Shown one piece after another: positions 8,459 to 56,907 of a stretch of 64,000 nt of DNA. Source of the DNA: a virus; IMG/VR virus record IMGVR_UViG_3300045412_000261, positions 1-64,000 of that record; one strand, given 5' to 3'. The number at the start of each line of letters is the position of its first letter. Within the stretch, counting starts at the first letter, position 1. A program made the position numbers and the translations under genes. The notes below the pieces were generated by a model. The model did not search any database. It was not told where the DNA came from and saw nothing but the letters and a program-made list of their open reading frames with translations.

Positions 8459-8512
8459 ATTCTTTTTTATATAAATAGTTATAAAAGAACTATAAAATAT
8501 AAATATGCCATA

Positions 8513-11406: not shown

Positions 11407-11409
11407 ATA

Positions 11410-11997
11410 TTATAGAACTTTACAGATAATTCCTTCGCTATCTACTAAAACAACACTGTTAAAAACATTATATCCAGCATCATGTCCAATATATTTTACA
11501 ACTGACATTCTATTATTATCAATAGTCTCGTCAACCGCTCTTTTTACTCCTTTTGTAGTAGGATGTCCATAATCATCAAAAACTACATATAAATCTTTAT
11601 TATTTTTTTTCATTCTAAGACATCTCTCAATATCTTCTTTTACATTTGGATAATCATGTACGCAGTCAATAAAGCATAAATCTATATCATATAATATAGT
11701 AATATATGTTGAATTAGAATAAGCATTTCCTACTATACATGAAATATTCTTTCTACCTCTATTATTCTCAATTACTTTTTTGATATTATCGTCGGAGTGA
11801 TCTATTGCATAGACTTTTTCGGCTATGTAGGATAATACTCTAGTCGTATATCCCCAGTTAGCTCCTATTTCTAGACATGTTTTTATGGATTTATCAGAAA
11901 AAAAATCTAGTAAATCCTTTTTAAATTTGTGAGATGTAGTGTTTTTATTATCCTTTTTATCTGGTATTCCCTGTAGGATTTCTTCATAATTATACAT
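11410..11997 (-). CDS. class I SAM-dependent methyltransferase (Methyltransf_24-like)
   Basis: CLEIGANWGYTT, YAID, DLCFIDCVHDY and VFDDY. Confidence 0.88.
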   Translation of the reverse strand: MYNYEEILQGIPDKKDNKNTTSHKFKKDLLDFFSDKSIKTCLEIGANWGYTTRVLSYIAEKVYAIDHSDDNIKKVIENNRGRKNISCIVGNAYSNSTYITILYDIDLCFIDCVHDYPNVKEDIERCLRMKKNNKDLYVVFDDYGHPTTKGVKRAVDETIDNNRMSVVKYIGHDAGYNVFNSVVLVDSEGIICKVL

Positions 11998-12919: not shown

Positions 12920-13569
12920 TCTTGAAAAATTATTAGCATTTCCATATTATAAGGGCTAGTGGCATATACTGAATATCCATAAGAGTTTGCTATATTTTTT
13001 ATTGTCTCTAATGTAACATTTGTATAATCACATTTTCCATCTTGATTAGTTCCAAATAAATGCGCATCGTCAATAGCAATCAAATCATTTTCCTGCGCCG
13101 TTTCAAATATAAGTTCAAGTTCTTTTAGCAGAGGTACGTCCTCTTCTCCTCTAGCATACTTATCCGCTCCTGCATGAGCGTCTAACCAAAAACACATAGG
13201 TTCTTCTCTGTCTTTTAGAAAATCACGAAGAAAAGAAACGCTATCGTTCTTGTGTAACCATAACTTATCTGAAAAATAAGAACAAACGTCATTAAAATCA
13301 GTATCTTCGGTATCATCTGATAAAATAGCATCAAAAAATTCTCCCTTCTTCTCAATTTTCTTGAATCTGTTAGATGCTATCTTAGCGATTGATTCCCCTA
13401 ATTCTACTGTAATCCATTTGTCAAAATCGTCTAAACTTCCGTTGTGTCTAAGTGCTGTAAGCGCTGATCCTCCTTTAAAAGTACCTGTTTCTACAAATAT
13501 TTTAGGGCAAGGTCTTCTTAATTTTTCTTGAGCAATTGCATGGTAAAAGGCTGGTAAAATGTAACCCAT
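12916..13569 (-). CDS. class I SAM-dependent methyltransferase-like protein
   Basis: FVETGTFKGGS, ITVEL, DSV, FWLDAH, PLLKEL and IDD. Confidence 0.75.
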   Translation of the reverse strand: MGYILPAFYHAIAQEKLRRPCPKIFVETGTFKGGSALTALRHNGSLDDFDKWITVELGESIAKIASNRFKKIEKKGEFFDAILSDDTEDTDFNDVCSYFSDKLWLHKNDSVSFLRDFLKDREEPMCFWLDAHAGADKYARGEEDVPLLKELELIFETAQENDLIAIDDAHLFGTNQDGKCDYTNVTLETIKNIANSYGYSVYATSPYNMEMLIIFQE

Positions 13570-13581
13570 ATTATAATGTAT

Positions 13582-13842
13582 TTAAATAATTTCGTTGTCT
13601 GTCGCTTCATCAAAATATAAACCGTATAAATCAAATAAAATATCGGCTATTTCATTATCTATATCATTTATCCATTCAAAATTTCTATGATAATACATTT
13701 TTATAATTTCGTTTATCAATTCATCATCGTTTGAGGCCAATATGAAAGCTATATTTAAAGTTAAGTCTTCATCCTCTGTATTAGTTTTAAACCTCACAAG
13801 ATCCCTTATAGTTCTTTGTACTAATTGTAATTTTTCCTCCAT
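13582..13842 (-). CDS. small acidic hypothetical protein
   Basis: 86-aa D/E-rich ORF directly downstream of the GNAT-like gene. Confidence 0.55.
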   Translation of the reverse strand: MEEKLQLVQRTIRDLVRFKTNTEDEDLTLNIAFILASNDDELINEIIKMYYHRNFEWINDIDNEIADILFDLYGLYFDEATDNEII

Positions 13843-13844
13843 AT

Positions 13845-14753
13845 TTATTTAAATGTTAAATTGAACAGGTCTTTATCAATCTTATTTTTAACATAATCTT
13901 CTAATACTTTCATGCTATATGAGTTATCTGACAAATCAAAATAACCATCCCAATCTCCTCCTCTCTCTTTCCAAAAATTTCTTCCCGTTTCTGTTTTTAA
14001 GAAATCCTCTATTTTAGACACTTTTCCGTTTGGGTATAATTCATTGTACTCATCTATTAAATAAGAATAAGTGCTTTGGGCTGATCTATCCGGGATAAAG
14101 CCATATCTTAGGTAGGCATAATATCCTGTAGAATTGCCTCTTTTTAAGAATTCGCCTTCTATTTTTTTTATTTTACCAAAAGCCTTTAAGTTTGCTATTT
14201 GTCTAGTTAATATATTTAAACCTCCTCCTGAAACATTTTCTCCTTCTTTTTTTATAGTTCCTATAAATTTATTTATGAGTGTTTTAGTATTAAAATCATA
14301 TTCAGTTTCTATGTGATATCTTTTAGATTCAAATAAAAAATAAGTCTCTCCAGTATTTTTCTTTTTTATAACTACTCTCTCAATATCTGATAAATTTGTA
14401 TCCGGTGATATTCCGCTCATATAGGCTAATAGTCTAAATTCTCGCTCTGTTTTTTTAGTCATAAATTTTTCACTGTCTAGCTTTTTTTGTTTTTTCCAAG
14501 AAATTCTTTCGTCATCATCGCTCCCTCCAAAAAACATATTATCACTCCCTTCTTTGACTTCTTTGTAATTTAATACCTCTATTGGATACTTATAAGACTT
14601 TTTATCTACTTCGAAATCACTGACTGAAGAATACTTTTTTTCTGTTTTAGATAGATTTTTAACAATTTTGTTTAGGTTTTTTTCGTGTATCTTTAATTTT
14701 TTAAGACTTTTCTCTAAATCATTTAAAGTTTTTTTTATATCATCGGAAGCCAT
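13845..14753 (-). CDS. hypothetical protein with GNAT-like C-terminal domain
   Basis: SGGGLNILTRQI...GYYAYLRYGF resembles GNAT motifs A and B. Confidence 0.45.
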   Translation of the reverse strand: MASDDIKKTLNDLEKSLKKLKIHEKNLNKIVKNLSKTEKKYSSVSDFEVDKKSYKYPIEVLNYKEVKEGSDNMFFGGSDDDERISWKKQKKLDSEKFMTKKTEREFRLLAYMSGISPDTNLSDIERVVIKKKNTGETYFLFESKRYHIETEYDFNTKTLINKFIGTIKKEGENVSGGGLNILTRQIANLKAFGKIKKIEGEFLKRGNSTGYYAYLRYGFIPDRSAQSTYSYLIDEYNELYPNGKVSKIEDFLKTETGRNFWKERGGDWDGYFDLSDNSYSMKVLEDYVKNKIDKDLFNLTFK

Positions 14754-15783
14754 ATTCTTTCATTTTATTTAAAAAATCTTTATAGGTGTTTAATTTACTT
14801 TGCTTACTACGTCCGTCGTAGAGTTTATTTAGATTATCTCGATTCATATCTCTTACAATATTATACCAGTCTCCTTTTTTTCCTTGGGTGCTCTCTGTCT
14901 TATCAAATGCAGATAATACATATTTCCTTTTTTCCGGATGCTCTCTATTGTGTACTTTAAGTATGTGTTTTACTACATACTGAACAAACATTTTATCCAT
15001 GACCCTCATACATTCGTACATAAAGGCGGTATCTTCGCCACTCAATCCCCAGAATCCTAATGGAATATTTGCTCCAGCTTTTATTAAATCAGAACTTATG
15101 CATAGAAAACTTCCATCAAATTTAGGATGGTATAACAAATCAATTTCTTCATGTGACTCATATTTTTTATTTATTTCATCCATTTCATCTTTAGTCATAA
15201 CATATCTTATAGAATGTTTTTCAGTAAAACATCTAGGGTCAGACTTTTCATAATATGGTAAATCTGTAAATTCAATATGTTCTAAAGGCTTCCATGACTC
15301 ATCCCACATTTTCCTATCAGCAAATGTAGTAATATATCTGTAACAATTATCTAAAGCAGCAGCATCTCTTATTTCATCAAGTATACGAAAAGCGCAATGA
15401 GGTACTAAACAGTCGGTTTCTCCCCAAATAACCCAATCTACTTTATTAGCATATTTATAATTTAAGTCTCTTCGATAATTTACCATAGTATAAGGCTCAT
15501 TACCATATTTTTGAAAATCAGTTTGAATTATATTACAGTTAGTCTTTTCTTTTAGTAAACTGATTATTTTCATAAATTTCCAGACTATTTCAGCTAACCT
15601 ATCTTTACTTTCGCATACTTCAAAAGAATCGCATGTATTTAGTAGTAAATCTATGTAAATGTTTTCTTGATTTTCTATATCCTTTACCGAATCTATTATA
15701 CTTTCAATTAAATAAGGAAGCATGTCTATTTCATAAAACATAACATTTGTCCCTATAACATATTTATATTTTAGCTTAGTCAT
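14740..15783 (-). CDS. GT-A fold glycosyltransferase (GT2-like)
   Basis: DWVIWGETDC (DxD-like), GSFLCISSDL, GEDTAF and HNR. Confidence 0.65.
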   Translation of the reverse strand: MTKLKYKYVIGTNVMFYEIDMLPYLIESIIDSVKDIENQENIYIDLLLNTCDSFEVCESKDRLAEIVWKFMKIISLLKEKTNCNIIQTDFQKYGNEPYTMVNYRRDLNYKYANKVDWVIWGETDCLVPHCAFRILDEIRDAAALDNCYRYITTFADRKMWDESWKPLEHIEFTDLPYYEKSDPRCFTEKHSIRYVMTKDEMDEINKKYESHEEIDLLYHPKFDGSFLCISSDLIKAGANIPLGFWGLSGEDTAFMYECMRVMDKMFVQYVVKHILKVHNREHPEKRKYVLSAFDKTESTQGKKGDWYNIVRDMNRDNLNKLYDGRSKQSKLNTYKDFLNKMKEYGFR

Positions 15784-16516
15784 ATTTATTATTTAAAAAA
15801 TTAAAAGTTTCTTGCATCCAATAGGCAGGCGTTGGTTTAACCCCACCATTAAAATGATAAATCCAGCCAAAATTAGTGTGTAACATCTTCACGGTCAGGA
15901 CTTCAAATCTATTCATATCCTGCATATTATATTCATAAGGTAAATATGCTTTTTCAATATTATAAATTTCAGATAGGTAGTTTAAAATTGGTTGATCTTT
16001 ACCTACTCCATATCCTTGAAAATTCATTAATTTATCTCTATTTTCCGCATAAAAATATCTTACATCTTCAAAGAATTTATTATGAGACTTATTGAATATC
16101 ATAACTCCGGAATTAAAGTATCTAAAAGGACTAATACTTATTGATTTATTAAATAGAACATCGGAGCAATTTTCTATACTTCTACATACCCAATCCATAC
16201 ATCCAAAATTTCTGACTACTCCAAATTTATCTCCTGCTAAATCAAATATATAGGGCATTTTAGGATGTACTATAGTATCCGAATCTACATACAAAACTCG
16301 ATTATAGTCAATATTTTCCGCCCTTAGTATGTTTGGAATGAATATTTTATTCCATTGAAATCCTAAATCAGAAACAACTTCAGATGATATAGAAAATAAT
16401 TCTACATTATTAGCATCACACCATTTCTTCCAGGATTTTGAACTTATTGAATAGCCTTGATTAGCAGATCTCTCTGATTTATTTATTGCTATCTGAACAA
16501 CTATATCTTTACTCAT
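15776..16516 (-). CDS. GT8-like glycosyltransferase
   Basis: VLYVDSD, YFNSGVMIFN, DQPILN, LPYEYN and IYHF. Confidence 0.85.
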   Translation of the reverse strand: MSKDIVVQIAINKSERSANQGYSISSKSWKKWCDANNVELFSISSEVVSDLGFQWNKIFIPNILRAENIDYNRVLYVDSDTIVHPKMPYIFDLAGDKFGVVRNFGCMDWVCRSIENCSDVLFNKSISISPFRYFNSGVMIFNKSHNKFFEDVRYFYAENRDKLMNFQGYGVGKDQPILNYLSEIYNIEKAYLPYEYNMQDMNRFEVLTVKMLHTNFGWIYHFNGGVKPTPAYWMQETFNFLNNKYD

Positions 16517-17315
16517 AATATTTTTTTACTAAATCCCATGTCTTTGACATTAATTCATATCTATCTCCCCTAGTAGGGAATCCGCTGAACATCCAAAACC
16601 ATCCATATTTAATAAAGAAAGGCTCTTTATTTCCTAATTGCCAATTATGACTCATCCAATTAAAACGATATAAATGGGTGAGCATATAGGCGGGATTTAG
16701 AGATTCTAAATCAAATGGAATATTATTATCTTGTATAAAATAGTTAAATACAGGTTGGTCGGTACCTCTCTTTATTTTTTCATTCTCTAAAAACATAATT
16801 TCCTTATTCTTATCCTTAAATAGTTTTTCTAAATTAGAAAGAAATTCGTAATTTTTGGAGTTCAAAATAACATTTCCCGTACATATATATCTTTTTAAAT
16901 CAAAGTTAACAGAAAATAAATCTTTATACCCTTGTATTCCTTCGTTTATCCAATATAGATTTTCTAAAGATCTATGTCCATATACAATTTCAGGATTTAG
17001 GTCATGAAAATCCCATGGAGCAGGAGCATCCCATCGAATTATTGTAGACCCATCTACAGCCCATATCCAATTAGGAGTGATATTTTTATTTGTTATAACT
17101 TTTTTCATGTCAAACCATCTTTGCCAAGTAACTTTTGTTCCTGACTTTTCTGGATTATAATCTGACAATTCATAAGGTACAAAAATTGTATTATTCTTTT
17201 CGCACCACCATTCCCAAGATTTTCTTGATACGTCTAAATAATTAAATCCTCCATGTTTATCATTCATATGTGGGTCTTTATTTTTAACCCCAATCCAATA
17301 AACAACATTTTGCAT
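16509..17315 (-). CDS. GT8/GT34-like glycosyltransferase
   Basis: SWEWWCEKNN, WAVDG, YICTG and TDQPVFNY; paralogue-like to the downstream gene. Confidence 0.7.
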   Translation of the reverse strand: MQNVVYWIGVKNKDPHMNDKHGGFNYLDVSRKSWEWWCEKNNTIFVPYELSDYNPEKSGTKVTWQRWFDMKKVITNKNITPNWIWAVDGSTIIRWDAPAPWDFHDLNPEIVYGHRSLENLYWINEGIQGYKDLFSVNFDLKRYICTGNVILNSKNYEFLSNLEKLFKDKNKEIMFLENEKIKRGTDQPVFNYFIQDNNIPFDLESLNPAYMLTHLYRFNWMSHNWQLGNKEPFFIKYGWFWMFSGFPTRGDRYELMSKTWDLVKKYYE

Positions 17316-17318
17316 AAT

Positions 17319-17816
17319 CTATAATTTATTTTTGTTTCGCATCAAATACCCTAAATATTTACTCTTAGACTTCTTTTCGAGTATATAATTTCTGTGAATT
17401 TGATTTTTTGAATTGTTGCACCATTCTAAATTAGATACAGTATTATTTGTCTTTTTTCCATCTATATGATTTACTTGAGGATGATTTTCTGGATTGGGGA
17501 TAAAAGCCATTGCCACTGCTCTGTGCATAGCCACATTGAACCTAGATACAACGCCGGTATCCTTTGTCGGGTAAGAAAATCGAATCATTAAGTATCCTGA
17601 TGTTGTGAAAGATTGAGCTAAAATTGCTTCTTTTAAAGTGTATGATGAATAATTGTATTCTGAACCATTTTCTCTTCTTCTTTTTTGAACGCATAATCTA
17701 TCCATCCTTTTTACTCGACCTAAATTAGATACTTGATACCAATCCTCATAATTTGGAAAAGGCTTCCAAATCTCTCCAGGTAAAGGTTTCAAATCCATAT
17801 TTTCACGAATTTCCAT
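17319..17816 (-). mobile_element. free-standing NUMOD4-HNH homing endonuclease gene
   Basis: EIWKPFPNYEDWYQVSNLGRVK (NUMOD4); HRAVAMAFIPNPENHPQVNHIDGKKTNNTVSNLEWC (HNH). Confidence 0.9.
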
Positions 17817-17951
17817 AAAGTGAAATTAAAAAAATCGGGATGGATTTTCCATCATCTACGATAACTCGTTATTTTAACTTTTAAACTACCGATTCTAAAT
17901 TATTAACTAATTAATATATAATAGTTATATGACAAAATAAAAACAACATAC

Positions 17952-19208
17952 TTATATTAAACCAGAATTTATACCTGTTTGTTGAATTAACTCCCAATAT
18001 TTTTTACTTGCTGTACCTGATTTGTATACATCTGGTTTATTATAGGGTAATTCATCTATATAGTCGGCTTTGCAGAAAAACTCAGGATTTCCTTTAACTA
18101 CCCCGGCATTATGGAAGATATTGTTTCGGTACCAAGAATTTTCGTCATCTGTTGCCCAGGAAAAAGATAGGTTACCGTGTACAATTGTATTAGCATTCAT
18201 CTTCCATCCATTAAATAATATTGCCCACATGTCCGCACACCAAATTTGAAGTTCTTCATAGTTGGGATTTTCCTGCTTTTTTAAGTTGTTAATTGCTGTG
18301 ATATCTCTAAATAAATTCTCGGAGTCTCTTTCTACGTTATGCCAGAAATGATAGTCGATATTTTTGAGAATGTATTGTGCGCCTATATTATTATGATTGT
18401 TTGCTAATAATGTTTCTTGAGGTATATTAGCTATAAAGCAGACGGAATTAAGTACATCAATTCCTTTACTGTCTATATAATCATGAGAAAGATATGAATT
18501 ACAGTCAGAACCATACCAGTTACTATCCTGCACCATGTTATCACTAATCCACTCGTTTATAGGTCTTGTTAATACTATATCACAATCATGGTAGAATATA
18601 GCATCATTAACTAAATCAGGATTTCTTTCCCAGTGTTGTTTTAAAATATTAGGTCTTATAGAAGAAATATAATTTTTAGACTGTCTTGTATCCGGATAAA
18701 AATAATATCTAACCGAATTATATTTCATAATGAGCTTAAACCAAGGATGAGGAATGGTATTTGTCTCATCTAGTGCGCAAACAATATTAATTGCCGAAGG
18801 TTCTACTCCCATTGATAGGAAGTTTTCAATCATTACTTCTACTTGCCACGCATAATATAACGTAGCAGGTTGTGCGCAAATAAATTTTAAAGTAGATGGT
18901 GGAGCAGCTTGCATGGTAGGTACAGGTGGAGCAACATACTCAGGTATTTGATTCGCTAACTCCTTTATTTCATTCGACATGTTTTTATCTACTTCAGCCC
19001 ATTTACCTTCAGGACATGCGTTTTCTACCGGTGAATATATCTTACTTTTTAATAAACACCCACATACTCCACAATGAATAGTAGGAGATGTTTTCTTGTG
19101 TTCACAGGCATCACATATCGCTATGCGAGCCTCCGCTAATTTACTTTGCTTTTCGTTGGGGTTTAATTGTATTCCCCAGGATCTTAAAATCTCTACAAAT
19201 TTATTCAT
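17952..19208 (-). CDS. Cys-rich N-terminal domain fused to a peptidyl-Ser galactosyltransferase / Hyp-arabinosyltransferase (SERGT1/HPAT)-like GT-A domain
   Basis: CDAC...CGVCGC...CPEGKW; Pro-rich linker; YYAWQ, Y.SSIRP..LKQHW, FYHDCDI and WCADMW. Confidence 0.6.
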   Translation of the reverse strand: MNKFVEILRSWGIQLNPNEKQSKLAEARIAICDACEHKKTSPTIHCGVCGCLLKSKIYSPVENACPEGKWAEVDKNMSNEIKELANQIPEYVAPPVPTMQAAPPSTLKFICAQPATLYYAWQVEVMIENFLSMGVEPSAINIVCALDETNTIPHPWFKLIMKYNSVRYYFYPDTRQSKNYISSIRPNILKQHWERNPDLVNDAIFYHDCDIVLTRPINEWISDNMVQDSNWYGSDCNSYLSHDYIDSKGIDVLNSVCFIANIPQETLLANNHNNIGAQYILKNIDYHFWHNVERDSENLFRDITAINNLKKQENPNYEELQIWCADMWAILFNGWKMNANTIVHGNLSFSWATDDENSWYRNNIFHNAGVVKGNPEFFCKADYIDELPYNKPDVYKSGTASKKYWELIQQTGINSGLI

Positions 19209-20248
19209 GATTCTTTTGTTATTCCGTCTAGGTTTGCTAAAATGTTATAAAAATGTAATACAAAATTCTGCGGGGAATACAAATCAATCAATGTCTCCCT
19301 CACATTATTATTAATATCTTTAACATCATTATTGTTCAATGATAGTAGAACATCAATAAGATCATTTAAATCATCCCAATTATTATTACATGCAAAATAA
19401 GTCTCTCTATCAATGTAAGGATTAGGAGTAGTAATGACATTATCCATGAAAGGCTTAATTAATATACATCCCATATTCCATATCTCAAAATCTCTAAAAC
19501 ATATCTCACCCATGCCAAAAGGAGATACAGCACATTTACTCTTAATCAATCCTAATCTATAATCTTCAGGACTAAGCCTACCGGAAACGACATTATAGGT
19601 ATCGCCCAATCTATCCAACTCCACCAAGCTCCGCTTTCTATGTCTATTATAATATAAATCGTTGCGAATTCCAAAGTCATAATTCTCCTTATGATCCGCT
19701 TGATAAACTGCAAATACATCATATTCTTTTTTTACTTCATGATTCGCAAATTGAACATATTGAGGATGATAGTACCCGAGATTATAACCAGATAAAACAA
19801 TGTCATCATATCTTTTTACATCATAGGATATCTTGTCCTCCGGGCCGGCATACATGTTCCACCATTCTTTACCCAATGGAGATGGAATGCTATATACATC
19901 TTTACTATATTTTTGATTCTTTATTAATCTCTCTGCATTGCTATTCTCAAATACATCATAAGACCCTAAAATAGATGGAGAATCAGAACCATCATATAAC
20001 ATGTATCTCCCATCTATCTCATGTAATCTTCCCAATCCATAATCAATAGACTCCTGTAAAGACTTCGCCCGCCGGTTAATGAAACACTCGTCACCTAAAA
20101 TGCTTATATCCCAACTGTCTATCCTATGATCCCCAGCAATAATAAAATCTATTCCTACATCATTGAACAAATCTTTATACATCAAAAATCCTCTATATGT
20201 AGCTTTATTTCTACCTATATTATCATCAACTAATCTAATACGTAACAT
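19205..20248 (-). CDS. GT-B glycosyltransferase (exostosin/Glyco_trans_1_2-like)
   Basis: Y...L..SKCAVSPFGMGEICFRDFE...GCILIKP. Confidence 0.75.
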   Translation of the reverse strand: MLRIRLVDDNIGRNKATYRGFLMYKDLFNDVGIDFIIAGDHRIDSWDISILGDECFINRRAKSLQESIDYGLGRLHEIDGRYMLYDGSDSPSILGSYDVFENSNAERLIKNQKYSKDVYSIPSPLGKEWWNMYAGPEDKISYDVKRYDDIVLSGYNLGYYHPQYVQFANHEVKKEYDVFAVYQADHKENYDFGIRNDLYYNRHRKRSLVELDRLGDTYNVVSGRLSPEDYRLGLIKSKCAVSPFGMGEICFRDFEIWNMGCILIKPFMDNVITTPNPYIDRETYFACNNNWDDLNDLIDVLLSLNNNDVKDINNNVRETLIDLYSPQNFVLHFYNILANLDGITKES

Positions 20249-20277
20249 AAGTTCAACATTAATAGGAATAATCCTTA

Positions 20278-21048
20278 TTATAATTTAGAATACATTTCAT
20301 TTTGACTAATCTGCTTATCTAAACTCTTAACATGTAATAAAGACCAATTCCACTCATCCGGAATAGCAGAATAGTGTGAATACCCTGTAATTACTTCATG
20401 CACTTTATTCTTAAATCTAATATGGTCTTTATTCCTATATATCCTAGTTTGATAATCCGGAAAATTAATAATAGGATTATGATATACCACCATTCTATTA
20501 GTACCTTTATCATCTATCTTATAATCTTCCTTTATCAAATTATTCATCTCAAGTATCTTATATAAATCACTGTATATACTTATAGGCTCTGGAGTAGATA
20601 CAACAGCTTCTTCATGTTTACTAATTTTCCATCCCCATTGGTTAATCCATTCTTGCGTAATGTTATTTACAATGTTTATTCTTGGAACGGCAATCATTTC
20701 CATGTTTTCATTAATTTCCAACAATTCTTTCACATTATATAACAAATACGGATTCAATAATTCATCCGCATCAATTTGAAAAATCCATTCACCTCTTGCA
20801 TGTTCAAATAAATTGTTCTTAAATGTAGCAAAATCACCGTTCAATGAAAAATTTACATGTTTAATAGAATCCGAAATGTCATGATTTTTTATAACATGCA
20901 GAACATCTTTAGTAACCTTTGAAGAGTCAGTCTGAACTATAATTTCCGTATCTATTCCTAAAACACCTTCTAACTGGGATAGGAGGATAAATAGCTCTTC
21001 GTTTTCATTACAAGCCGTTACACAATAAGACAAAAATATATTATCCAA
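20278..21048 (-). CDS. GT2-family glycosyltransferase
   Basis: SYCVTACNE, FATFKN, EWIFQIDADE, PDYQTRIYRN and KVHE. Confidence 0.88.
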   Translation of the reverse strand: MDNIFLSYCVTACNENEELFILLSQLEGVLGIDTEIIVQTDSSKVTKDVLHVIKNHDISDSIKHVNFSLNGDFATFKNNLFEHARGEWIFQIDADELLNPYLLYNVKELLEINENMEMIAVPRINIVNNITQEWINQWGWKISKHEEAVVSTPEPISIYSDLYKILEMNNLIKEDYKIDDKGTNRMVVYHNPIINFPDYQTRIYRNKDHIRFKNKVHEVITGYSHYSAIPDEWNWSLLHVKSLDKQISQNEMYSKL

Positions 21049-21508
21049 TTTCTCTATATTTTGGAGCGTTTAATTCATATAGTTTCTCAAAAGCAAAGCG
21101 GAATCCATCGGCCTCAAACTCAAAGGCATTATCCACATCTACTTTCCTTTTTATCTTGGCATTAGGGTAGGACTTAATATCATCATCGGTAAAGTCTACA
21201 ATAGCACATACTTTCCATACGAGTTTTCTTTCATTGCTCTCATCTGGAAAAATAACCGCCGTGTCCAAAGAAAATACAAAAGGATACCATACACAATTAT
21301 CAACGTCGATATGCCTCTTGTCAATGCAAATCCGGGGCAGCGTCGACTCATACTGAATCTGATTATCCGATCCTAGAACAAGACTTGAGTCCGTATAGTA
21401 GCCGCTGCCCATACAAAGTTTAGTAAGCAACCCAGAATCAGAAAGTTCTACAATAACTTCGTCTTTACCTGTTATAGGAGACTTTTCTTCTAATGTTTGA
21501 TCAATCAT
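21041..21508 (-). CDS. hypothetical protein
   Basis: 155-aa ORF overlapping both neighbours. Confidence 0.6.
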   Translation of the reverse strand: MIDQTLEEKSPITGKDEVIVELSDSGLLTKLCMGSGYYTDSSLVLGSDNQIQYESTLPRICIDKRHIDVDNCVWYPFVFSLDTAVIFPDESNERKLVWKVCAIVDFTDDDIKSYPNAKIKRKVDVDNAFEFEADGFRFAFEKLYELNAPKYREIG

Positions 21509-22791
21509 TTTACTAATTTTAGTTTTGGTAAATTTAATTTATTTAATTTTGGCTGTTTTGAAACTTCTGTTTCTATAGAGTCTAATAAATGCTCTAATTT
21601 ATCTACCATTTTTTCAAAAGTAAAATGAGCTATGGTGTGTAATCTCTGCTTTTCTGCGTTCTCTTTGTGTTTGTTATAATTAGTAAACACATCTGCAATA
21701 ACCCCAGCAGCATACATATAATCTACAGTAAACCATTTTGATTCCTGTATAAACCAATCATTAAGTACGGACCTATCAATAGGTTCCAATCGGCCTGGAA
21801 GTAAAGAAGTATATTTCGGGTGGAGAAAATCCAAGTGTCCTGACCAATTAGAAGCAATAATAGGTTTTCCAGTAACGGAGAACTCTGCTAAAGGTCTTCC
21901 GTATCCTTCACCTTTAGTAAATGAAATCATTGCTTTAATTTTAGGATTGTTATACAAATTATTCATTTCATCATCTGATAATTCACCATGTACAATGTAT
22001 ATATTTGGACCTGATTCTCCATCAGTTATAGATCTTATTTTAGACTGTATTTCATTTAAATCCCCTATTGAATAATTTCCTCCACTCGTTTTTAATATTA
22101 ATGCAGGTCTATTTTTTTCCGGCATTCTTTTAAATGTATCAAAAAATACCTTTATCATGGCTCCCACATTCTTTCTATCATTTCCAAAAGAACCATTTAA
22201 CCAATGGCCTACAAATAGATAACAGAAATCTTCTTTAATATCATCTAATAAGCTCACATTTGCATCAGGATTAACTTTATTACTATATATGGTAGTATCA
22301 ACTCCCTCAAATAAAATCTCTCGTCTCAGCCCGTCTCTGAGCTTTAAAGTTCCTTCTAATTGATTAGTGTTTTTATTTACTTTATCAAATACAGAATCTT
22401 CTATTACATCAAGAGAATGTTTTGATGTTGCAATGAGCATATCCATGTTATTACATCCTTCAATCCATTTAGGTGCGCACATATCTGTCTCAATTCCTGC
22501 GGTAAAACCTATATTATATTTTCCACACCTAACAAATTCATTAGGTATCGTTAGCTGTATGAAAATATCATCATTAGCATCTGTCTTAGGTACTATTCTT
22601 TTTATAATCTCTAAATCATTAGGATTATTTTTATCCAAAGCATTTGTAGGAGTATTTCCCCAGGCTGTGGATACAATTTTTAAATCGTACTTGTCAGATA
22701 AAGCTATTAAAGCCCATGCAATATCTCTTCCATGTGCTCCATATCCAGAAGATGTATATACAGGTGCGACTAAAGTTACTTTCTTTTTCAT
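21505..22791 (-). CDS. GT4-family glycosyltransferase
   Basis: SGYG, RKN and KGEGYGRPLAEF...KPIIASNWSGHLDF. Confidence 0.9.
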   Translation of the reverse strand: MKKKVTLVAPVYTSSGYGAHGRDIAWALIALSDKYDLKIVSTAWGNTPTNALDKNNPNDLEIIKRIVPKTDANDDIFIQLTIPNEFVRCGKYNIGFTAGIETDMCAPKWIEGCNNMDMLIATSKHSLDVIEDSVFDKVNKNTNQLEGTLKLRDGLRREILFEGVDTTIYSNKVNPDANVSLLDDIKEDFCYLFVGHWLNGSFGNDRKNVGAMIKVFFDTFKRMPEKNRPALILKTSGGNYSIGDLNEIQSKIRSITDGESGPNIYIVHGELSDDEMNNLYNNPKIKAMISFTKGEGYGRPLAEFSVTGKPIIASNWSGHLDFLHPKYTSLLPGRLEPIDRSVLNDWFIQESKWFTVDYMYAAGVIADVFTNYNKHKENAEKQRLHTIAHFTFEKMVDKLEHLLDSIETEVSKQPKLNKLNLPKLKLVK

Positions 22792-24281
22792 AAAATTCCT
22801 ATTGCTTTATTAGTTTTTTCAGGAGTTATTTTGTGAATAGAAAATTTAGATCTAGGTTTCCAATTTTCTAGGGCTATTCCTATATTTTTTATAAATCTAT
22901 TGCTCATTTCTTCGGCGGACATTCCCACTTCTGGATTTAGAGCAAAGGTAATTCCATTCATACCTAATCCCTTTCTTTCCTCTCTTGGTTTTTGATACCA
23001 ATAAAAAAGACCTTCAGCTACATCTTCAAAAGACACTCTATCGTCAAAAATATAAGGAGTTGCCGGTGATCCTTGCAAAGACCTGTTACTAGGAAATATA
23101 GGATATGCCCAATTCCCATGAGTTTTATAAACTCCAGAATGATTAGTGGGGAAATCTTTTGTGAATTTTATATATTTTCCTTTCTTATCAACAAATCCGC
23201 ATTGGTCTTGGAGACCTCCTGTTACATTGTTTATAATTGGGGTGCCCGCCATAAGAGCTTCTGCTCCTGATAATCCAAATCCCTCATTTGATGCTATATT
23301 TACTACCACATCGGCAAAATTATACCAAAAATTTAAAGTTTTAGTATCTATTTTTTTATCAGAAAAAATAACTTTACCAGAAGGATTTATTGCTTTTACA
23401 GTGGCTATTAAATCAGTTCCATTTCCGTCTATTGGATCTGTATGCATTACTAAAACACATCTCTCTGCTTTTTCAGGAGTTAATTTTTCGCAGAATTTAC
23501 TAAATGCTAAAACAACATCTCCTGGTTGTTTTCTTCTAATATTTCTATTATTCCAAAATACTAAATAATCTGTAGGAGTTTCTTTTTTAAACTCAGAAAT
23601 GTACTTTTCATATTCATCAAATACTTGACTTTTTGAAGTAATTTTATAAATATGTTTATTGTTTATACCATGAGGAATGTAGGCTGTATAAGTCGTATTA
23701 TTTGAAAATGATGTCGGTAATCCTAAATCCAAATCATGAAATTTATAATCATTTTCTTCTAAGACTACATTAACTAAATTGTGAGTTTGTTTTGATATGT
23801 TGAAAATAAAATCGCATGATGCATAAAATTCCGCATTCCAATGAGGATATGGTAAATCATCCCATATATTATAATACATCAAAGGAATTGTTGTTCTAAT
23901 TTCTCTTTCCATTGCGTATAACCATTCCCAAAATCTAGGATCTGTAAAATGTAATATTGCATCAGGAGATTCTCTAGATATAATTTCCCTAAGTTTTTGT
24001 GGATCTCCATAGCCATTATTTGGATATATAAGTACGCTAGCATCGTCTATACCCATTTCTTTGTTTACGTCCTCTGAGACATCTATAATTTTTCCAGAAT
24101 CTGGATTTTTTATAGCTGCTCCTAATTGAACCCAATCGAAATACTTTGCTGTACCAACTACAATTTCTCTAGACATTACTCCGATACCTGAGTTTAGCCT
24201 TAAGTCATCGGATAAAAGCAGTATTTTTTTCTTCTTAGGCCTATTGGTAATTTTTCTTAATTTTGGTAATTCAAAATTCAT
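22788..24281 (-). CDS. GT4-family glycosyltransferase
   Basis: IPHGI, NRNIRRK and NEGFGLSGAEALMAGTPII..VTGGL. Confidence 0.9.
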   Translation of the reverse strand: MNFELPKLRKITNRPKKKKILLLSDDLRLNSGIGVMSREIVVGTAKYFDWVQLGAAIKNPDSGKIIDVSEDVNKEMGIDDASVLIYPNNGYGDPQKLREIISRESPDAILHFTDPRFWEWLYAMEREIRTTIPLMYYNIWDDLPYPHWNAEFYASCDFIFNISKQTHNLVNVVLEENDYKFHDLDLGLPTSFSNNTTYTAYIPHGINNKHIYKITSKSQVFDEYEKYISEFKKETPTDYLVFWNNRNIRRKQPGDVVLAFSKFCEKLTPEKAERCVLVMHTDPIDGNGTDLIATVKAINPSGKVIFSDKKIDTKTLNFWYNFADVVVNIASNEGFGLSGAEALMAGTPIINNVTGGLQDQCGFVDKKGKYIKFTKDFPTNHSGVYKTHGNWAYPIFPSNRSLQGSPATPYIFDDRVSFEDVAEGLFYWYQKPREERKGLGMNGITFALNPEVGMSAEEMSNRFIKNIGIALENWKPRSKFSIHKITPEKTNKAIGIL

Positions 24282-51803: not shown

Positions 51804-52340
51804 TTAATATTTATTTAGTTCATCATACGCATCATTAATTCCAGACCTGTAATCAGTAGTTGTAAGATTTGTTTTCCTACTTAAATGTGCTTGTGCTATA
51901 ACAGATATATTATAACCAAACTCAGATTCTTCTCCTAATACGTGAGGTATATATGTTTCGGGATTTCTACCAAACCAAGCATTATCAGAGAATACATTAT
52001 TCAGTTCATAAAAATCCATATCAAAAAAAACATAATCTCCAGGTTCTATAACTAAATCTCGTTCTAATAAATCATCTCTCAAAAAATAAAATGTAGCGTC
52101 TCTTTCAAAATCTAATCCAAAATCAGTATCTATAGTTTCTTTTGTTCCTCTTTTTACTATGCAATTTAATCTAGTAGCGTTATAGAAAACTTTACTAGGG
52201 GCTTCTCTATATATGTTTTCTCTAGTATCCTCTCTAGATAATTTATAAAGTTCGACCTCTAAGGCCATTACTTTATTTACTCTTTCCCTATTTATACTCC
52301 TAACTAAAGAAGCGTCTCTACCACTACCAAATAGCGCCAT
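51804..52340 (-). CDS. neck / head-closure protein (gp14-like)
   Basis: Position between gp13-like and gp15-like genes; NIY.EA..K.F and EPGD. Confidence 0.65.
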   Translation of the reverse strand: MALFGSGRDASLVRSINRERVNKVMALEVELYKLSREDTRENIYREAPSKVFYNATRLNCIVKRGTKETIDTDFGLDFERDATFYFLRDDLLERDLVIEPGDYVFFDMDFYELNNVFSDNAWFGRNPETYIPHVLGEESEFGYNISVIAQAHLSRKTNLTTTDYRSGINDAYDELNKY

Positions 52341-53500
52341 TATCCTATGTATATTTTAAGTGGAATAACTCCTAAAAATTTCTCATGAGCTTCAGATTCT
52401 GCCATTTTTCTCTCTAATTGCGATTGACGACTAAATTGATCTAGCTCTATTCTAAGTACATCTATTAACTTTTGCTTTTCCTCATTTACCGAATACATTA
52501 AATCTTCGGTATTTAATACAATTTCGTCCTCTAATCCCGGAAGTGTCTTATATTTTCCTCTAACATAAGCTAACATTTCTTTTGATAAAACTAATGTGTA
52601 TTTTCTTATCCATTGTTTACCTATGTCATTTATACTCGAGTAAGGCAAGGTAAAATAAGGTATAGTAGCATGGCTATTTATTTTACCAGTGCCTCCCCTA
52701 TTTGCATTTTTATATTCTGAATCTAAAGTGTACTCAAACCAAATTTTATATTCTTTTGCAGGAGTTGGGAATATTCTAATTCTATTATTTATTATCTCAA
52801 AGCCATACGCTGATTTCCTTATCTGATCATTAAATTCTATGGCCTGCATTCTAAGAATGTCGTGATGTAAAGGCATTAATAAGAAATTCACTCCAGGGCT
52901 ATAATTACCGAATCCAAATTGATCTAGCAAATTTTGAGTACCTAAGCCTGTACCTACGAATGGATCAAAATATTTAACAATAGCAGGTGGAGCATTATGG
53001 AACATTTTTCTTATTACGAACTTGTCTGTAGCGGGATTCCCAGATTCTAATGATACTCTATTTGAATCTAATAAACTATAAACTTGTTTTCCTTCTTTTA
53101 CGAGTATAGAACCAGTATAAAAAGTTGTTTTACCTCCCACTCCGACTTCTGTTCCGTATTCAGAAGCTATTTCTAAAACTCCGGCTATTGAGTTGGTAAC
53201 TAACTCTTTTTCTAATCTAAGAGATCCGGTATTGAATCCCATTAAACCTAATATATTATCTTTTGCAGAATGAGCGTTGACTTGATTACTATATTCGGAA
53301 ATAGCCTCTTCGAAAGCAGTATAAAAATTGATATCTTGTAATTCGACATCAGTAAGCGGGTATCCCAATCTCCTAGCACACCATACAGCAACTTTAGGAG
53401 CATCTTTTTGAAAATTGGTATCTCTGTCAAATATTCCGAAAGGCGTAGATCCAGATACTGCGCTACCACTTCCAGGCCAAATAGGTATATGAACTGTCAT
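52340..53500 (-). CDS. neck protein (gp13-like)
   Basis: RRLGYP..DVEL, WIRKYTL.LSKEML..VRGKY and terminal PL.IYIG. Confidence 0.8.
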   Translation of the reverse strand: MTVHIPIWPGSGSAVSGSTPFGIFDRDTNFQKDAPKVAVWCARRLGYPLTDVELQDINFYTAFEEAISEYSNQVNAHSAKDNILGLMGFNTGSLRLEKELVTNSIAGVLEIASEYGTEVGVGGKTTFYTGSILVKEGKQVYSLLDSNRVSLESGNPATDKFVIRKMFHNAPPAIVKYFDPFVGTGLGTQNLLDQFGFGNYSPGVNFLLMPLHHDILRMQAIEFNDQIRKSAYGFEIINNRIRIFPTPAKEYKIWFEYTLDSEYKNANRGGTGKINSHATIPYFTLPYSSINDIGKQWIRKYTLVLSKEMLAYVRGKYKTLPGLEDEIVLNTEDLMYSVNEEKQKLIDVLRIELDQFSRQSQLERKMAESEAHEKFLGVIPLKIYIG

Positions 53501-53546: not shown

Positions 53547-55829
53547 TTAATACACTTGTCTTATAAAGGATACTAGTACATATCTAACTCCGGATATCAC
53601 AGGTCTAGCTCCATGTCTATGTGTTATTTGTCCAGGATGGATTGTTAATTCACCTATTTCTCCTTTAACTAACTTCTTTTGTTTTGAGAACCAAGTACCT
53701 CCTCCTTCGTATGCATCGTTTAGCGTTAACACAGTAGAAAATGCAGAATCGTCATGGTGTAAAGATAAATGTCCTTGATTTTCCGGTGTGTATTTTATAA
53801 TAAAGTTTTCCGAACTAAATTTTTTCCATTTATCTCCAGTAAGTACAAAATTAGATTTTACGAGGGGATATATGTAAGTATTTAAAAACATGTCATAAGC
53901 ATCATGTAATTGAAATTCATTGATTAACATGTCATGCGTTGGATAATAATAATGTCTATCTTTTGTCCATTTTCCGCACTCTTCTGCTAATCTTATAACT
54001 TCATTGCAAAATTCTTTTTTAAATGCGTGTAAATGTAAGACATCAGGTATAGGTTCGTCTACAATTAAATCATATTCTTTATTCTTTAATGCAGGATTGA
54101 TGTACATTGAAGACCATTTGTCTATGTCTTTTATTAGATAGATATTAGATGCAAATGAATTATTAGATGTTTTACTTGTTTTGGAATTACTTGTTTGACT
54201 TACTATACATTCTTTTAGACTGTATGCATTTATGTCTTTCCATATAAAATTTAAATCATTTCTTTCATTGTTATTTGAATATGTAGATGCTAAGAAATCA
54301 TCTAATGGTAAGATGTATTTTTCAAAGTTCTGTTCTAATATTCTTTCTATACCTAATTTTGATAACATGTAGGCATGAGATAACCATGAGTATCCCGGGG
54401 ATGTGTATATGGAGTTTGGTATGTCTTTGTCCCCGCCTAATTTTTGCCTACCGAGATATAAAAGACCCCAATCATATAAATCAATTTTTTCCGCGGGGAA
54501 CTCTACATCTACTTTAAAATCATCCTCCAAAATTAAAATAGATCCATAATTTTTCTTTTTAGCATCTTTCCATATAGATAAATGAGATAAAGCACATCCA
54601 ATCTCCCCGGGTAGTATATTCCGGTTATAATATGAATTACTGTGATTATTTATTTTCCAATCCTTATATAAAGACCAATCAAAATCTACTTTAGGATTTC
54701 TACCATCTACGGCCTTAAACAAATGAAATTCACCTGGTATAATACCTAACTTATTAAATTCGGAGGTGTATTTACTAATAGCTTCATCAGATACGTCAAA
54801 AGTAATTACATAGACAGCATCTATCTTTAATTTATTTTCCATGACATTATTATTTATAAAATTTTTAGCAATATTTAAAGGATTAAAAGCATCATATACA
54901 TTTAATTTAGATGTATTAGGATTAGTAAGCATTCTAAAATTATCATTCGACAATACACATGACAACCATGAATCAAAATCAATATAATCAAATATAGTCT
55001 CTTTCAATCCCGCTCTTAATCTTGTTATAGGAATCAATCCCAACATCTGCATTTCTACAGCTGACACACAAAATGTTTCATCGTAATTCGAAGGATATAA
55101 CCAATATTTTTTATTACTAGCAAAAGATATCAAATCACTCTTTTTCATGCAACCATAATAATATACATTTTTATACGTTGTAGTAACATGAGAGAAATGA
55201 CTATTATAAAACTCTTCTCCGTATTTAGGTGTAAGGATATACAGACATGATTGAGGTCTGTGATATAAAATCTGCCTCCAATGTGTTAAAATTTCTCTTA
55301 ATCCTCTTTCTGCATGTGATATATAAATGTAAGAATCTTGAATTTTAAATTTATCCGACTTTTCTATATGTTTTACCGCATTATATAAAACAATAGATGG
55401 AATGTTGGGAAAATGATTATCAAATTCTTTTTTATGATAATTAGATACGCAAATAACACTTTTAAACTTAGGATGATTAAATACCCTATCTTGTAATTCT
55501 GGTATATTATTTCCTTTGTAAAAATTATAGAAAAAAGGATCTGTGTTATGTATCCAAAAATAAGACTCATCGTAGCTAGTATCTGATATTAAGTCGATAT
55601 AATGCGTGTAATTTAGAGAAATTAATATGTCTGCTTGTAAATTATAGTCTTTTGTGTAAATAACTCCATTTAAGGCGTTCTCACGAACGATATCCCCTGT
55701 TATGAATACAGTATGCCCTAGGGACGATAAAGCCTCGGAGAAGTAACGTAAAGCCCATTCAGTGCCGGCGAAGTCATCTCCGCTGGCGTTAAAATTTGAG
55801 TAGTATCCAATATAAAACTTAATTGTCAT
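53547..55829 (-). CDS. trifunctional GT4 + GT25 (COLGALT-like) + PLOD-like 2OG-Fe(II) lysyl hydroxylase
   Basis: GT4: AGTE, ERGL, YPSNYDETFCVSAVEMQ. GT25: AVDG, GEIGCALSH..IW, ILEDD, W.LLYLGR, HAYMLS, LPLDDFL. PLOD: P.PDV, FC.E.I, PT.D, F.IKY.P..Q..L..HHD.S, YEGGG, HPGQITH.H, G.RY.LVSF. Confidence 0.85.
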   Translation of the reverse strand: MTIKFYIGYYSNFNASGDDFAGTEWALRYFSEALSSLGHTVFITGDIVRENALNGVIYTKDYNLQADILISLNYTHYIDLISDTSYDESYFWIHNTDPFFYNFYKGNNIPELQDRVFNHPKFKSVICVSNYHKKEFDNHFPNIPSIVLYNAVKHIEKSDKFKIQDSYIYISHAERGLREILTHWRQILYHRPQSCLYILTPKYGEEFYNSHFSHVTTTYKNVYYYGCMKKSDLISFASNKKYWLYPSNYDETFCVSAVEMQMLGLIPITRLRAGLKETIFDYIDFDSWLSCVLSNDNFRMLTNPNTSKLNVYDAFNPLNIAKNFINNNVMENKLKIDAVYVITFDVSDEAISKYTSEFNKLGIIPGEFHLFKAVDGRNPKVDFDWSLYKDWKINNHSNSYYNRNILPGEIGCALSHLSIWKDAKKKNYGSILILEDDFKVDVEFPAEKIDLYDWGLLYLGRQKLGGDKDIPNSIYTSPGYSWLSHAYMLSKLGIERILEQNFEKYILPLDDFLASTYSNNNERNDLNFIWKDINAYSLKECIVSQTSNSKTSKTSNNSFASNIYLIKDIDKWSSMYINPALKNKEYDLIVDEPIPDVLHLHAFKKEFCNEVIRLAEECGKWTKDRHYYYPTHDMLINEFQLHDAYDMFLNTYIYPLVKSNFVLTGDKWKKFSSENFIIKYTPENQGHLSLHHDDSAFSTVLTLNDAYEGGGTWFSKQKKLVKGEIGELTIHPGQITHRHGARPVISGVRYVLVSFIRQVY

Positions 55830-55836
55830 ATATACT

Positions 55837-56502
55837 TCAAAATGAATTAGGGTATAAATACTTGAATATATCGTCTAATGCTTCATGTCTATGGTTTGTA
55901 GAAAGAGTAACACAATTTACATACTTACTTTGATTTATTATAGGCACAAATTTAATTGCTGATTGATCTCTATTCCTTAAATCTATTTGATTCTCATCTC
56001 CTGTAAAAATCATAATTGTATTTTTACCTAGACGGCTTATACACATAGATAATTGTTCTTTGGTTAAATTTTGAAATTCATCTATAATACAAACAGCGTC
56101 ATCAAAAGTTCTACCTCTAAAGTGTGCTAAAGAGACTAATTCTACAGATTTATCAGAGTATAGCCTTTCCACAGCAGATTGTTTTGCATAGGCTTTAGAT
56201 ATATTGTCTTTAATAGGGACTATCCATGGTTCTAACTTCTCTTCAAAAGTTCCTGGTAGAAATCCCATTTCTTCCGTAGCTACCATAGGTCTTGTGATAA
56301 CTATTCTATTTATTTCTTTTCTAAAAAACTTATCTAATGCTATTTGAGTCGCTAACAATGTTTTTCCACTTCCTGGTTTTCCAAAAACAAAATTAACTGG
56401 ATGAGTTAAAATTTTTTCTTTTGCTTCTTTTTGATCGTTAGATAATTGAATGTCAAACTTTACCGGATTTTTAGGTACCCTCTTTTCTGTGTTTTCGGCC
56501 AT
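55837..56502 (-). CDS. phoH: PhoH-family ATPase
   Basis: GKPGSGKT, ITRP, GFLPG, RGRTF, IDEFQN and GD..QIDL. Confidence 0.95.
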   Translation of the reverse strand: MAENTEKRVPKNPVKFDIQLSNDQKEAKEKILTHPVNFVFGKPGSGKTLLATQIALDKFFRKEINRIVITRPMVATEEMGFLPGTFEEKLEPWIVPIKDNISKAYAKQSAVERLYSDKSVELVSLAHFRGRTFDDAVCIIDEFQNLTKEQLSMCISRLGKNTIMIFTGDENQIDLRNRDQSAIKFVPIINQSKYVNCVTLSTNHRHEALDDIFKYLYPNSF

Positions 56503-56842: not shown

Positions 56843-56876
56843 AAAATAAAAAAGCGGAGCTTTTTTGAAGCCCCGC
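56843..56876 (-). terminator. intrinsic terminator after the major capsid gene
   Basis: - strand GCGGGGCTT-CAAAA-AAGCTCCGC followed by TTTTTTATTTT. Confidence 0.85.
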
Positions 56877-56907
56877 CATATACAAAATAATTATGATAAT
56901 TTATAGA

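Follow-up and report, generated by a model that had tools for sequence, protein, structure and literature searches.

Introduction

Collagen lysyl hydroxylases (LH) use X-Lys-Gly as their acceptor motif, and a tail-to-tail dimer of the LH domain is needed for activity in mimivirus L230 and in LH2/LH3. The second step of collagen glycosylation in animals yields Glc-alpha1,2-Gal. To our knowledge, hydroxylysine-linked glycosylation of collagen has so far been shown only in animals and in one giant virus. In the human LH3-COLGALT1 (KOGG) complex the three steps, from lysine to hydroxylysine (Hyl), to Hyl-O-hexose and to the addition of a second hexose, are carried out by two proteins; mutagenesis showed that Y656, H667, D669 and H719 of LH3 and E435 and D437 of COLGALT1 are required, and S415 is the uridine-binding serine of COLGALT1 (PMC11897130). 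Mimivirus L230, in which a GT25-like glycosyltransferase (GT) part is joined to an LH domain, hydroxylates and glucosylates lysines of the viral collagens, where Lys is frequent at the Y position of the Gly-X-Y (G-X-Y) triplet (review PMC9614988). Here we analyze P0001, the predicted product of a gene at 53547-55829(-) in the first 64,000 nucleotides (the window) of the IMG/VR virus record IMGVR_UViG_3300045412_000261, which comes from a marine T4-like phage. P0001 joins a GT4-like, a GT25 and a PLOD-type LH domain in one chain, and it is probably an enzyme with three activities by which collagen-like fibre proteins of the phage itself are matured inside the infected cell.

Collagen repeats in structural proteins were noted in a pelagimyophage study, in which phage GTs were interpreted as modifiers of lipopolysaccharide (LPS) (PMC7029224); a Baltic virome study called the role of viral prolyl 4-hydroxylase (P4H) 'cryptic'; and for other dioxygenase families, Iyer et al. 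(2010) predicted that they hydroxylate collagen-like proteins of bacteria. In a full-text literature search, no paper was found that links a PLOD-type enzyme to phage collagen-like fibres.

Results

Domain architecture of P0001

Translation of the window gave a single uninterrupted open reading frame (ORF) of 760 amino acids (aa) with three domains, which were delimited by Pfam, phmmer and Foldseek searches and by AlphaFold2 (AF2) models built from alignments of 80 sequences (aa 1-335) and 96 sequences (aa 336-759). The features of the gene are as follows (window coordinates).

53547..55829 (-), whole three-domain ORF P0001, 760 aa, stop codon included (ORF list and translation)
54825..55829 (-), retaining GT-B, GT4-like glycosyltransferase domain, aa 1-335 (AF2 fold, Foldseek, EX7E)
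55053-55079 (-), EX7E motif of the GT-B domain, E251...E259 (ETFCVSAVE)
54186..54824 (-), GT25 (COLGALT-type GT-A) domain, aa 336-548 (Pfam PF01755, phmmer, Foldseek)
54582-54587 (-), S415-H416 of the GT25 domain (alignment to COLGALT1)
54519-54527 (-), predicted Mn-binding E435-D436-D437 (LEDD aligned to COLGALT1 FEDD)
54120..54185 (-), low-complexity Ser/Thr/Asn-rich linker, aa 549-570 (sequence; dip in model confidence, pLDDT, to 66-72)
53550..54119 (-), PLOD/LH-type 2-oxoglutarate (2OG)-Fe(II) lysyl hydroxylase domain, aa 571-760 (phmmer, Foldseek, active-site alignment)
53790-53792 (-), Y680 of the LH domain, aligned to LH3 Y656
53751-53759 (-), H691-H692-D693, with H691/D693 aligned to LH3 H667/D669
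53613-53615 (-), H739 of the LH domain, aligned to LH3 H719
53583-53585 (-), R749 of the LH domain, aligned to LH3 R729

The original prediction, made from the letters of the window, had proposed this single three-domain ORF of 760 aa, and translation, Pfam, phmmer, AF2 and Foldseek all bear it out. Its domain borders agree with the computed ones to about 35 nt, and every motif that it quoted was found, namely GEIGCALSH..IW (aa 408-420), LEDD (aa 434-437), WGLLYLGRQK, YSWLSHAYMLS, LPLDDFL and HHD...H...R. Homologues of 745-850 aa align end to end with full P0001.

The lysyl hydroxylase domain

When aa 571-756 were compared with the PDB by phmmer, human LH3/PLOD3 (E 2e-22) and mimivirus L230 (E 9e-19) were the sole dioxygenases matched at E<=1, with no P4H, AlkB or TET/JBP protein among the matches. 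Pfam gave an OGFOD2-like match that was sub-threshold, and no TET/JBP or AlkB match at E<=1. The AF2 model of the GT25 and LH domains (aa 336-759) reached a pLDDT of 90.8, falling to 66-72 in blocks 22-23, the linker zone. Foldseek placed this model on LH3 at 1e-22 and on the L230 LH domain at 2e-16 (TM 0.89, rmsd 2.1 A, 28% identity), whereas the best prolyl hydroxylase, PBCV-1 vCPH, was found at 5e-7, at least nine orders of magnitude worse than L230/LH3. Residue conservation was read from alignments of homologues at 30-49% identity, and Y680, H691, D693, H739 and R749 were invariant in 35 of 35. It can be seen that the PLOD-type dioxygenase with an intact HxD...H...R set, as claimed from the sequence, is indeed present; set against P4H, AlkB and TET enzymes, it groups with PLOD/L230 by both phmmer and Foldseek. 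Homology, fold and an intact active site identify the domain as a lysyl hydroxylase, and it would presumably act as one.

The GT25 domain

The central domain scored 60.1 bits against Pfam GT25 PF01755 (cut-off 24, E 3.6e-16), and its fold is nearest to the catalytic (GalT-C) domain of COLGALT1. In phmmer, aa 369-547 matched human COLGALT1 at E 5e-14 to 1e-13; LEDD falls on FEDD and LSH on LSH, both gap-free. Among 35 aligned homologues E435 is invariant, and D437 and S415 are conserved in at least 94%. The tandem GalT-N + GalT-C layout of animal COLGALT1/2 is absent, P0001 having one GT25 domain; by architecture it is therefore not a COLGALT orthologue and resembles the single GT25-like domain of L230. 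The COLGALT1-type GT25 domain put forward in the original prediction is thus confirmed by the Pfam score, and the structural comparison with PLOD3, COLGALT1 and L230 that it proposed bears out the kinship by Foldseek (COLGALT1 5e-16, beside the LH3 and L230 values above).

GT25 enzymes of bacteria raise another reading, in which the transferases of P0001 remodel glycans of the host envelope, such as the O-chain of LPS or of lipooligosaccharide (LOS), and so block superinfection; phage GTs, GT25 included, are commonly understood in this way. Bacterial GT25 proteins are LOS galactosyltransferases (8xlz), the JGI name for the homologues is 'GR25 family glycosyltransferase involved in LPS biosynthesis', and pelagimyophage GTs have been interpreted as LPS modifiers (PMC7029224). 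But COLGALT1 is much closer to the phage domain than bacterial GT25 is (phmmer 5e-14 against 0.27; Foldseek 5e-16 against 2e-9), the domain is obligately fused to a PLOD-type protein hydroxylase, which has no role in LPS synthesis, and the enzyme gene is linked to collagen genes, as described below. We consider the envelope reading very unlikely.

The N-terminal GT-B domain

The model of aa 1-335 (pLDDT 92.8) shows the two-Rossmann GT-B fold. Its best Foldseek match was glycogen synthase of P. abyssi (2bis, E 8.5e-12), followed by alpha-1,2-glucosyltransferase tll1591 (7fg9), PimA, TarM, MshA, BshA and WaaG; the top matches are all retaining GT-B enzymes of GT4/GT5 type. E251 and E259 of the EX7E motif were invariant in 29 of 29 and in 80 of 80 family members, as were about 18 further residues of the domain over the 80 members, at about 30% identity. 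In Pfam the domain stayed below cut-off (Glycos_transf_1 20.1 bits against 26.4; Glyco_transf_4 14.7 against 28.5), so that the GT4-like assignment rests on the fold and the invariant EX7E; many homologues carry precomputed PF00534, PF13439 or PF13692 matches. Because the catalytic residues are invariant or nearly so, and those of the GT25 and LH domains match COLGALT1 and LH3, all three domains of P0001 look like active enzymes under purifying selection.

It is also conceivable that the hydroxylase acts on the fibres as proposed, with one or both transferases otherwise employed; the GT4-like domain, for example, might modify Ser/Thr of the fibres or build another glycan, or might have an accessory role and no activity, as is the case for the AC domain of LH3. 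The sub-threshold Pfam scores fit such a role, many phages make do with a two-domain GT25+LH protein, LH3 itself contains a silent GT-like domain (PMC11897130), and a separate cluster with GT2, GT8 and GT1-like genes in the window could share the work. However, the invariance of EX7E and of the further residues favours catalysis, and the three-domain fusion is retained across several lineages. We consider this reading unlikely.

Collagen-like fibres of the same genome

The window itself contains no run of five or more G-X-Y triplets. The scan was extended to the rest of the genome, as the original prediction had suggested, and fibres were found there: the full contig of 142,581 bp (GC 31.5%) encodes three Pfam-Collagen proteins with tail-fibre matches in PHROG (genome coordinates).

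66926-71536 (-) (= L081:2926-7536), collagen fibre 1, 1536 aa, with C-terminal Peptidase_S74 chaperone, 158 triplets
100846-104409 (+), collagen fibre 2, 1187 aa, 84 triplets
87234-89237 (-), collagen protein 3, 667 aa, of GPA/GRD/GQP type, without Lys at Y

Fibres 1 and 2 are exceptionally rich in Lys at Y, which occupies 59 of 158 and 39 of 84 triplets respectively, and neither has a single Lys at X. Lysine thus makes up 37-46% of their Y positions (G-X-K-G). A P4H-like gene (PF13640) was not found in this genome, and DUF6445 was not found in a search run without positive control. Fibre 1 also has a Hint/intein-like stretch (aa 989-1110) between collagen runs, with Intein_splicing and PT-HINT both below cut-off.

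Linkage of enzyme and collagen genes in other phages

The family is large: clustering at 90% identity leaves 260 or more protein clusters, and 429 stretches were confirmed in IMG/VR. Three-domain members more distant from P0001 (33-37% identity, GC 38-53%) have a collagen-like ORF upstream of the enzyme on the same strand; these ORFs are 760-2230 aa long, hold 140-660 triplets and end about 0.05-2 kb before the enzyme gene. The linkage recurs in three syntenic contexts, namely a podovirus-like one, the L051/L071 type and the myovirus L027/L028, where the genes downstream of the enzyme match those in the window. When the enzymes were clustered at 70% identity, upstream DNA of 5 kb or more was available for 13 clusters, and 11 of these had collagen directly upstream on the same strand; at 50% identity this held for three of four, the exception being the lineage of the window phage.

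The podovirus-like cassette runs in the order portal, phrog_1084, collagen, DUF6445, enzyme, P4H-like oxygenase, and looks like a complete collagen-maturation module within the head gene block. It was observed in L039:73-16218(+), L020, L021, L052, L055, L063, L067 and L075, uncultured contigs that are apparently podoviruses of about 55-62 kb; here the portal is P22-like, the collagen is giant and Lys-rich, DUF6445 is a 'minor coat' type (phrog_1644), the enzyme has three domains and the oxygenase belongs to PF13640.

Cultured phages show a similar arrangement. In the cyanophages S-PRM1 and S-8S55 a tail fibre is followed by two small 2OG oxygenases and then by a GT25+LH fusion, and the fibres carry Lys at 23 of 59 (S-PRM1) and 24 of 55 (S-8S55) Y positions. 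The two small ORFs between the fibre and the fusion (about 185-205 aa; L086:10761-11926 and L087:10638-11818) are annotated as 2OG-Fe(II) oxygenases in the S-8S55 record and as hypothetical in the S-PRM1 record, and could further hydroxylate the same fibre.

Lysine at the Y position

Enrichment of Lys at Y was compared between enzyme-linked collagens and a background sample, which was obtained by a scan of viral contigs for a G-X-Y x8 pattern and restricted to loci with at least 30 triplets. In 39 distinct enzyme-linked loci the median proportion of Lys at Y was 32.6% (pooled 35.6%, 4156/11690), with Lys at X in 3/11690 triplets; in 30 background loci the median was 3.8% (pooled 5.9%, 134/2290), with Lys at X in 42/2290. 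The difference is about six-fold (Mann-Whitney p 2e-10, a value that overstates independence, since the enzyme-linked loci belong to related lineages). Base composition does not account for it, because the enrichment persists where GC reaches 53% and is limited to the Y position. As for cultured relatives, which serve as negative controls, the first ~1 kb of Microcystis phage Mel-JY01 (PP395634.1) encodes a long collagen-like GTS/GSS/GTR repeat that lacks Lys, and neither a G-X-K pattern nor an LH gene was found in this phage; Flavobacterium phage immuto has neither collagen nor enzyme. Among carriers of the enzyme, the close-relative contig L006 has 15 matches to the G-X-K pattern some 11.5 kb away from the enzyme gene, a spacing shared with the genome of the window, and one fragment with the two-domain form encodes a GDK/GEK collagen (see below); both speak for the fibre reading.

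Taken together, domain identity, the fibres of the same genome, gene linkage and enrichment of Lys at Y support, at the level of sequences and models, a role for P0001 in fibre maturation, and the collagen-like fibres, not capsid or neck proteins, are most likely its substrates.

Several observations weigh against this interpretation, besides the relatedness of the enzyme-linked loci and the sub-threshold Pfam scores of the N-terminal domain mentioned above. In its own genome and in close relatives, the enzyme gene lies at least 11 kb from the fibres. In one lineage that has the enzyme (L027/L028), Lys takes up just 2-10% of the Y positions of the collagens. In the reverse direction, a G-X-K x3 pattern in viral contigs led to about 50 true collagen loci, and LH, sought inside these short loci, was found in one (L121). 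LH was also absent from seven background collagen contigs, all fragments that are 6-85% complete, with a query that recovers the gene from the genome of the window (positive control). Since G-X-K collagens of viruses often occur with no LH close by, Lys at Y alone does not predict the enzyme. A search of bacterial and archaeal genomes from 185,579 species found nine loci, most of which encode ~560-aa proteins of metagenome-assembled genomes (MAGs) with an LH-only C-terminus; none of these LH-like loci has collagen adjacent, and they do not help to identify the substrate. The position of the gene beside phoH, treated below, is a further point of this kind.

Four of the MAG loci (L212, L215, L217, L219; match ~8001-8580) encode proteins of 556-562 aa from Rhodobacteraceae, Granulosicoccaceae and Chromatiales, one of them on a 3.5-Mb chromosome; their LH-type C-terminus shows 41-48% identity and their N-terminal parts are uncharacterised.

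Also to be counted on that side are two-domain forms of 431 aa, the nearest relatives of the GT25+LH part (45-49% identity). Their genes are flanked by recA-like and dnaB genes inside a replication module, and the surrounding 10 kb are free of collagen. This location, and a match of the LH domain to PHROG 2297, labelled 'DNA endonuclease', would suit hypermodification of DNA, in which a base is hydroxylated and then glycosylated, as by JBP/TET together with a glucosyltransferase or in the glucosylation of T4 hydroxymethylcytosine. Against it stand the lack of any TET/JBP or AlkB match at E<=1 in Pfam or PDB, the LH3/L230 fold and one 35-kb fragment of the 431-aa lineage itself, in which a GDK/GEK collagen lies about 20 kb from the two-domain gene. 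A DNA substrate therefore appears extremely improbable. The 431-aa genes at L208:1-21296 and L341:1-21296 have a primase gene near them in the T4-like replication module, and their neighbours include GDP-mannose-dehydratase/epimerase genes, a stand-alone GT25, an RXYLT1_C-like gene, a methyltransferase and two PF13640 oxygenases.

Gene neighbourhood and transcription

The enzyme gene is flanked by structural and head-block genes (window coordinates).

55837..56502 (-), phoH-like gene, directly upstream of the enzyme (PHROG 170, E 3e-59)
52340..53500 (-), head-completion/head-tail adaptor-like gene, directly downstream of the enzyme (PHROG 211, E 1e-10)
56853..56877 (-), terminator-like hairpin 3' of the major capsid gene (10-bp stem, 6 GC pairs, T-run)

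Downstream, the adaptor-like gene is followed by two small ORFs and the tail sheath gene. The ATG of P0001 is placed 7 nt past the phoH-like stop, and no terminator-like site was found in the gap; because of this short distance, the two genes are probably co-transcribed. The strong hairpin at 56853-56877, directly behind the capsid gene, forms the upstream limit of a transcription unit in which an 88-aa ORF and phoH precede the enzyme and neck genes, a position consistent with late expression together with the structural genes. The T4-type late promoter TATAAATA had 27 matches against 21.6 expected, with 0 upstream of the enzyme gene, and sigma-70-like sites occurred at chance level only.

The cultured relatives nearest by capsid identity, Mel-JY01 (60%) and immuto (54%), have the same block of major capsid protein (MCP), phoH, neck and sheath genes without the enzyme, the neck-type gene following directly after phoH. 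Tblastn of the enzyme against these two phages gave no match, nor did megablast of the enzyme region against cultured phages. The enzyme beside phoH is thus a lineage-specific insertion, and since the block exists without it, its position is weak evidence on the substrate. The original prediction had taken this position to suggest that virion proteins are the substrates; the argument from the capsid/neck location is weak, and the virion proteins concerned are most likely the collagen-like fibres.

These data bear on whether the enzyme targets Lys of non-collagen proteins, be they head, neck or other virion proteins or proteins of the host. A gene inside the MCP-phoH-neck block, a podovirus-like cassette placed between portal and a capsid-type structural protein, and bacterial MAGs that have LH-like domains with no collagen nearby would all agree with such targets. 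But the position is that of an insertion absent from Mel-JY01 and immuto, PLOD and L230 act on X-Lys-Gly of collagen (PMC9614988), the window lacks a run of five or more G-X-Y triplets, and wherever the enzyme is linked to a partner gene, that partner is a collagen unusually rich in Lys at Y. Non-collagen targets are, in our estimate, quite unlikely.

Two further sets of genes may bear on glycan synthesis. A co-oriented run at window 9036-24281(-) contains a GT2 gene (9036-10406), a GT8 gene (15776-16516) and GT1-like genes (11990-12919 and 21505-22791), several of the ten genes scanned having no Pfam match; its transferases could extend the glycans attributed to P0001 or further glycans of the virion. 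A single NAD-dependent epimerase/dehydratase gene at genome 137050-137784(-) (PF01370, E 1e-53) could be a source of a UDP-sugar donor.

Discussion

Among described systems, mimivirus L230 is the closest; it resembles P0001 in having a GLT25D1-like GT25 part N-terminal to a PLOD-type LH domain in one viral chain, and in belonging to a virus with collagen-like proteins of its own in which Lys is common at Y; the LH domains were compared by structure (6AX6) and the GT25-like part by description (PMC9614988). P0001 falls within this L230-like class. The two differ in that L230 has 895 aa and a long middle region whereas the phage GT25+LH unit is compact (~425 aa), in the extra GT-B/GT4 domain of P0001, which implies a second sugar, and in the bacterial host, with phage tail or virion fibres as likely substrates. 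Moreover, unlike L230, the P0001-type gene is widespread in phages, as its 429 stretches show.

The human LH3/PLOD3 and LH3-COLGALT1 complex shares with P0001 the order of reactions, as predicted for the phage enzyme. LH3 has its transferase N-terminal and its LH domain C-terminal and the catalytic residues Y656/H667/D669/H719/R729 are kept, as are S415/E435/D437 of COLGALT1. In contrast to the single chain of P0001, humans use two proteins in complex; the extending transferase of LH3 is a GT-A glucosyltransferase and that of P0001 a GT-B (GT4-like) one, COLGALT1 has a GalT-N + GalT-C tandem in place of one GT25, and the human reaction takes place in the endoplasmic reticulum whereas that of P0001 would occur in the bacterial cytoplasm.

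Collagen P4Hs (PBCV-1 vCPH, 5C5T; phage 'P4HA' auxiliary genes) are likewise 2OG/Fe(II) dioxygenases carried alongside collagen-like proteins. A P4H-like PF13640 gene flanks the enzyme in the podovirus-like cassette, whereas the genome of the window has none, and the P0001 dioxygenase is far from P4H by Foldseek (5e-7, against 1e-22 for LH3 and 2e-16 for L230). The beta-1,4-galactosyltransferases of bacterial LOS/LPS synthesis (8XLZ) share PF01755 and the GT-A fold; they differ by a similarity far weaker than that of COLGALT1, by the absence of a hydroxylase fusion and by a lipid-linked glycan acceptor.

A course of reaction may be proposed for fibre maturation by P0001. First, the C-terminal PLOD-type domain, with Fe(II), 2-oxoglutarate and O2, would hydroxylate the Y-position Lys in G-X-K-G. 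Secondly, by analogy with its family and with the L230 precedent, the inverting GT25 GT-A domain with its E-X-D Mn site would put a beta-linked hexose, Gal or Glc, on Hyl; both sugars are kept because L230 uses UDP-Glc though it is GT25-like and COLGALT uses Gal. Thirdly, a second, alpha-linked sugar may be added by the retaining GT-B/GT4 domain at the N-terminus, in parallel to the Glc-alpha1,2-Gal step on animal collagen; of the three steps this is the least secure. The sugars of the products are to be taken as predicted ones, and the phage GT4 fold is non-homologous to the animal enzyme that makes Glc-alpha1,2-Gal. The likely substrates are the fibres at genome 66926-71536(-) and 100846-104409(+), which would offer 59 and 39 Y-position lysines respectively. 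The product would be glycosylated hydroxylysine along the triple helix of the fibre, which could thereby be stabilised, solubilised or shielded, or have its host binding tuned.

A bolder reading, which we hold to be unlikely, is that hydroxylysine-linked collagen glycosylation is widespread in marine bacteriophages and that the pairing of PLOD and GT25 arose in the phage/bacterial pool and not in animals. Under it, at least four phage lineages would carry LH + GT25 cassettes, with or without GT4, beside Lys-rich collagen fibres, often together with P4H-like or DUF6445 oxygenases.

If the proposed role of P0001 is true, the pathway of collagen Lys hydroxylation and O-glycosylation would extend to viruses of bacteria, the members of a large family that currently go by 'LPS GT25', 'hypothetical' or '2OG-Fe(II) oxygenase' would acquire a function, and the evolutionary origin of the PLOD/COLGALT pairing would become testable. 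The prediction is testable now, since S-PRM1 and S-8S55 are in culture and carry the two-domain version beside a Lys-rich fibre. A compact one-chain enzyme suited to the bacterial cytoplasm may also be useful for producing hydroxylated, glycosylated recombinant collagen in E. coli. Finally, GTs and 2OG oxygenases of marine phages would have to be re-read as agents of virion fibre maturation, and not as host LPS modifiers or metabolic 'AMGs' (auxiliary metabolic genes).

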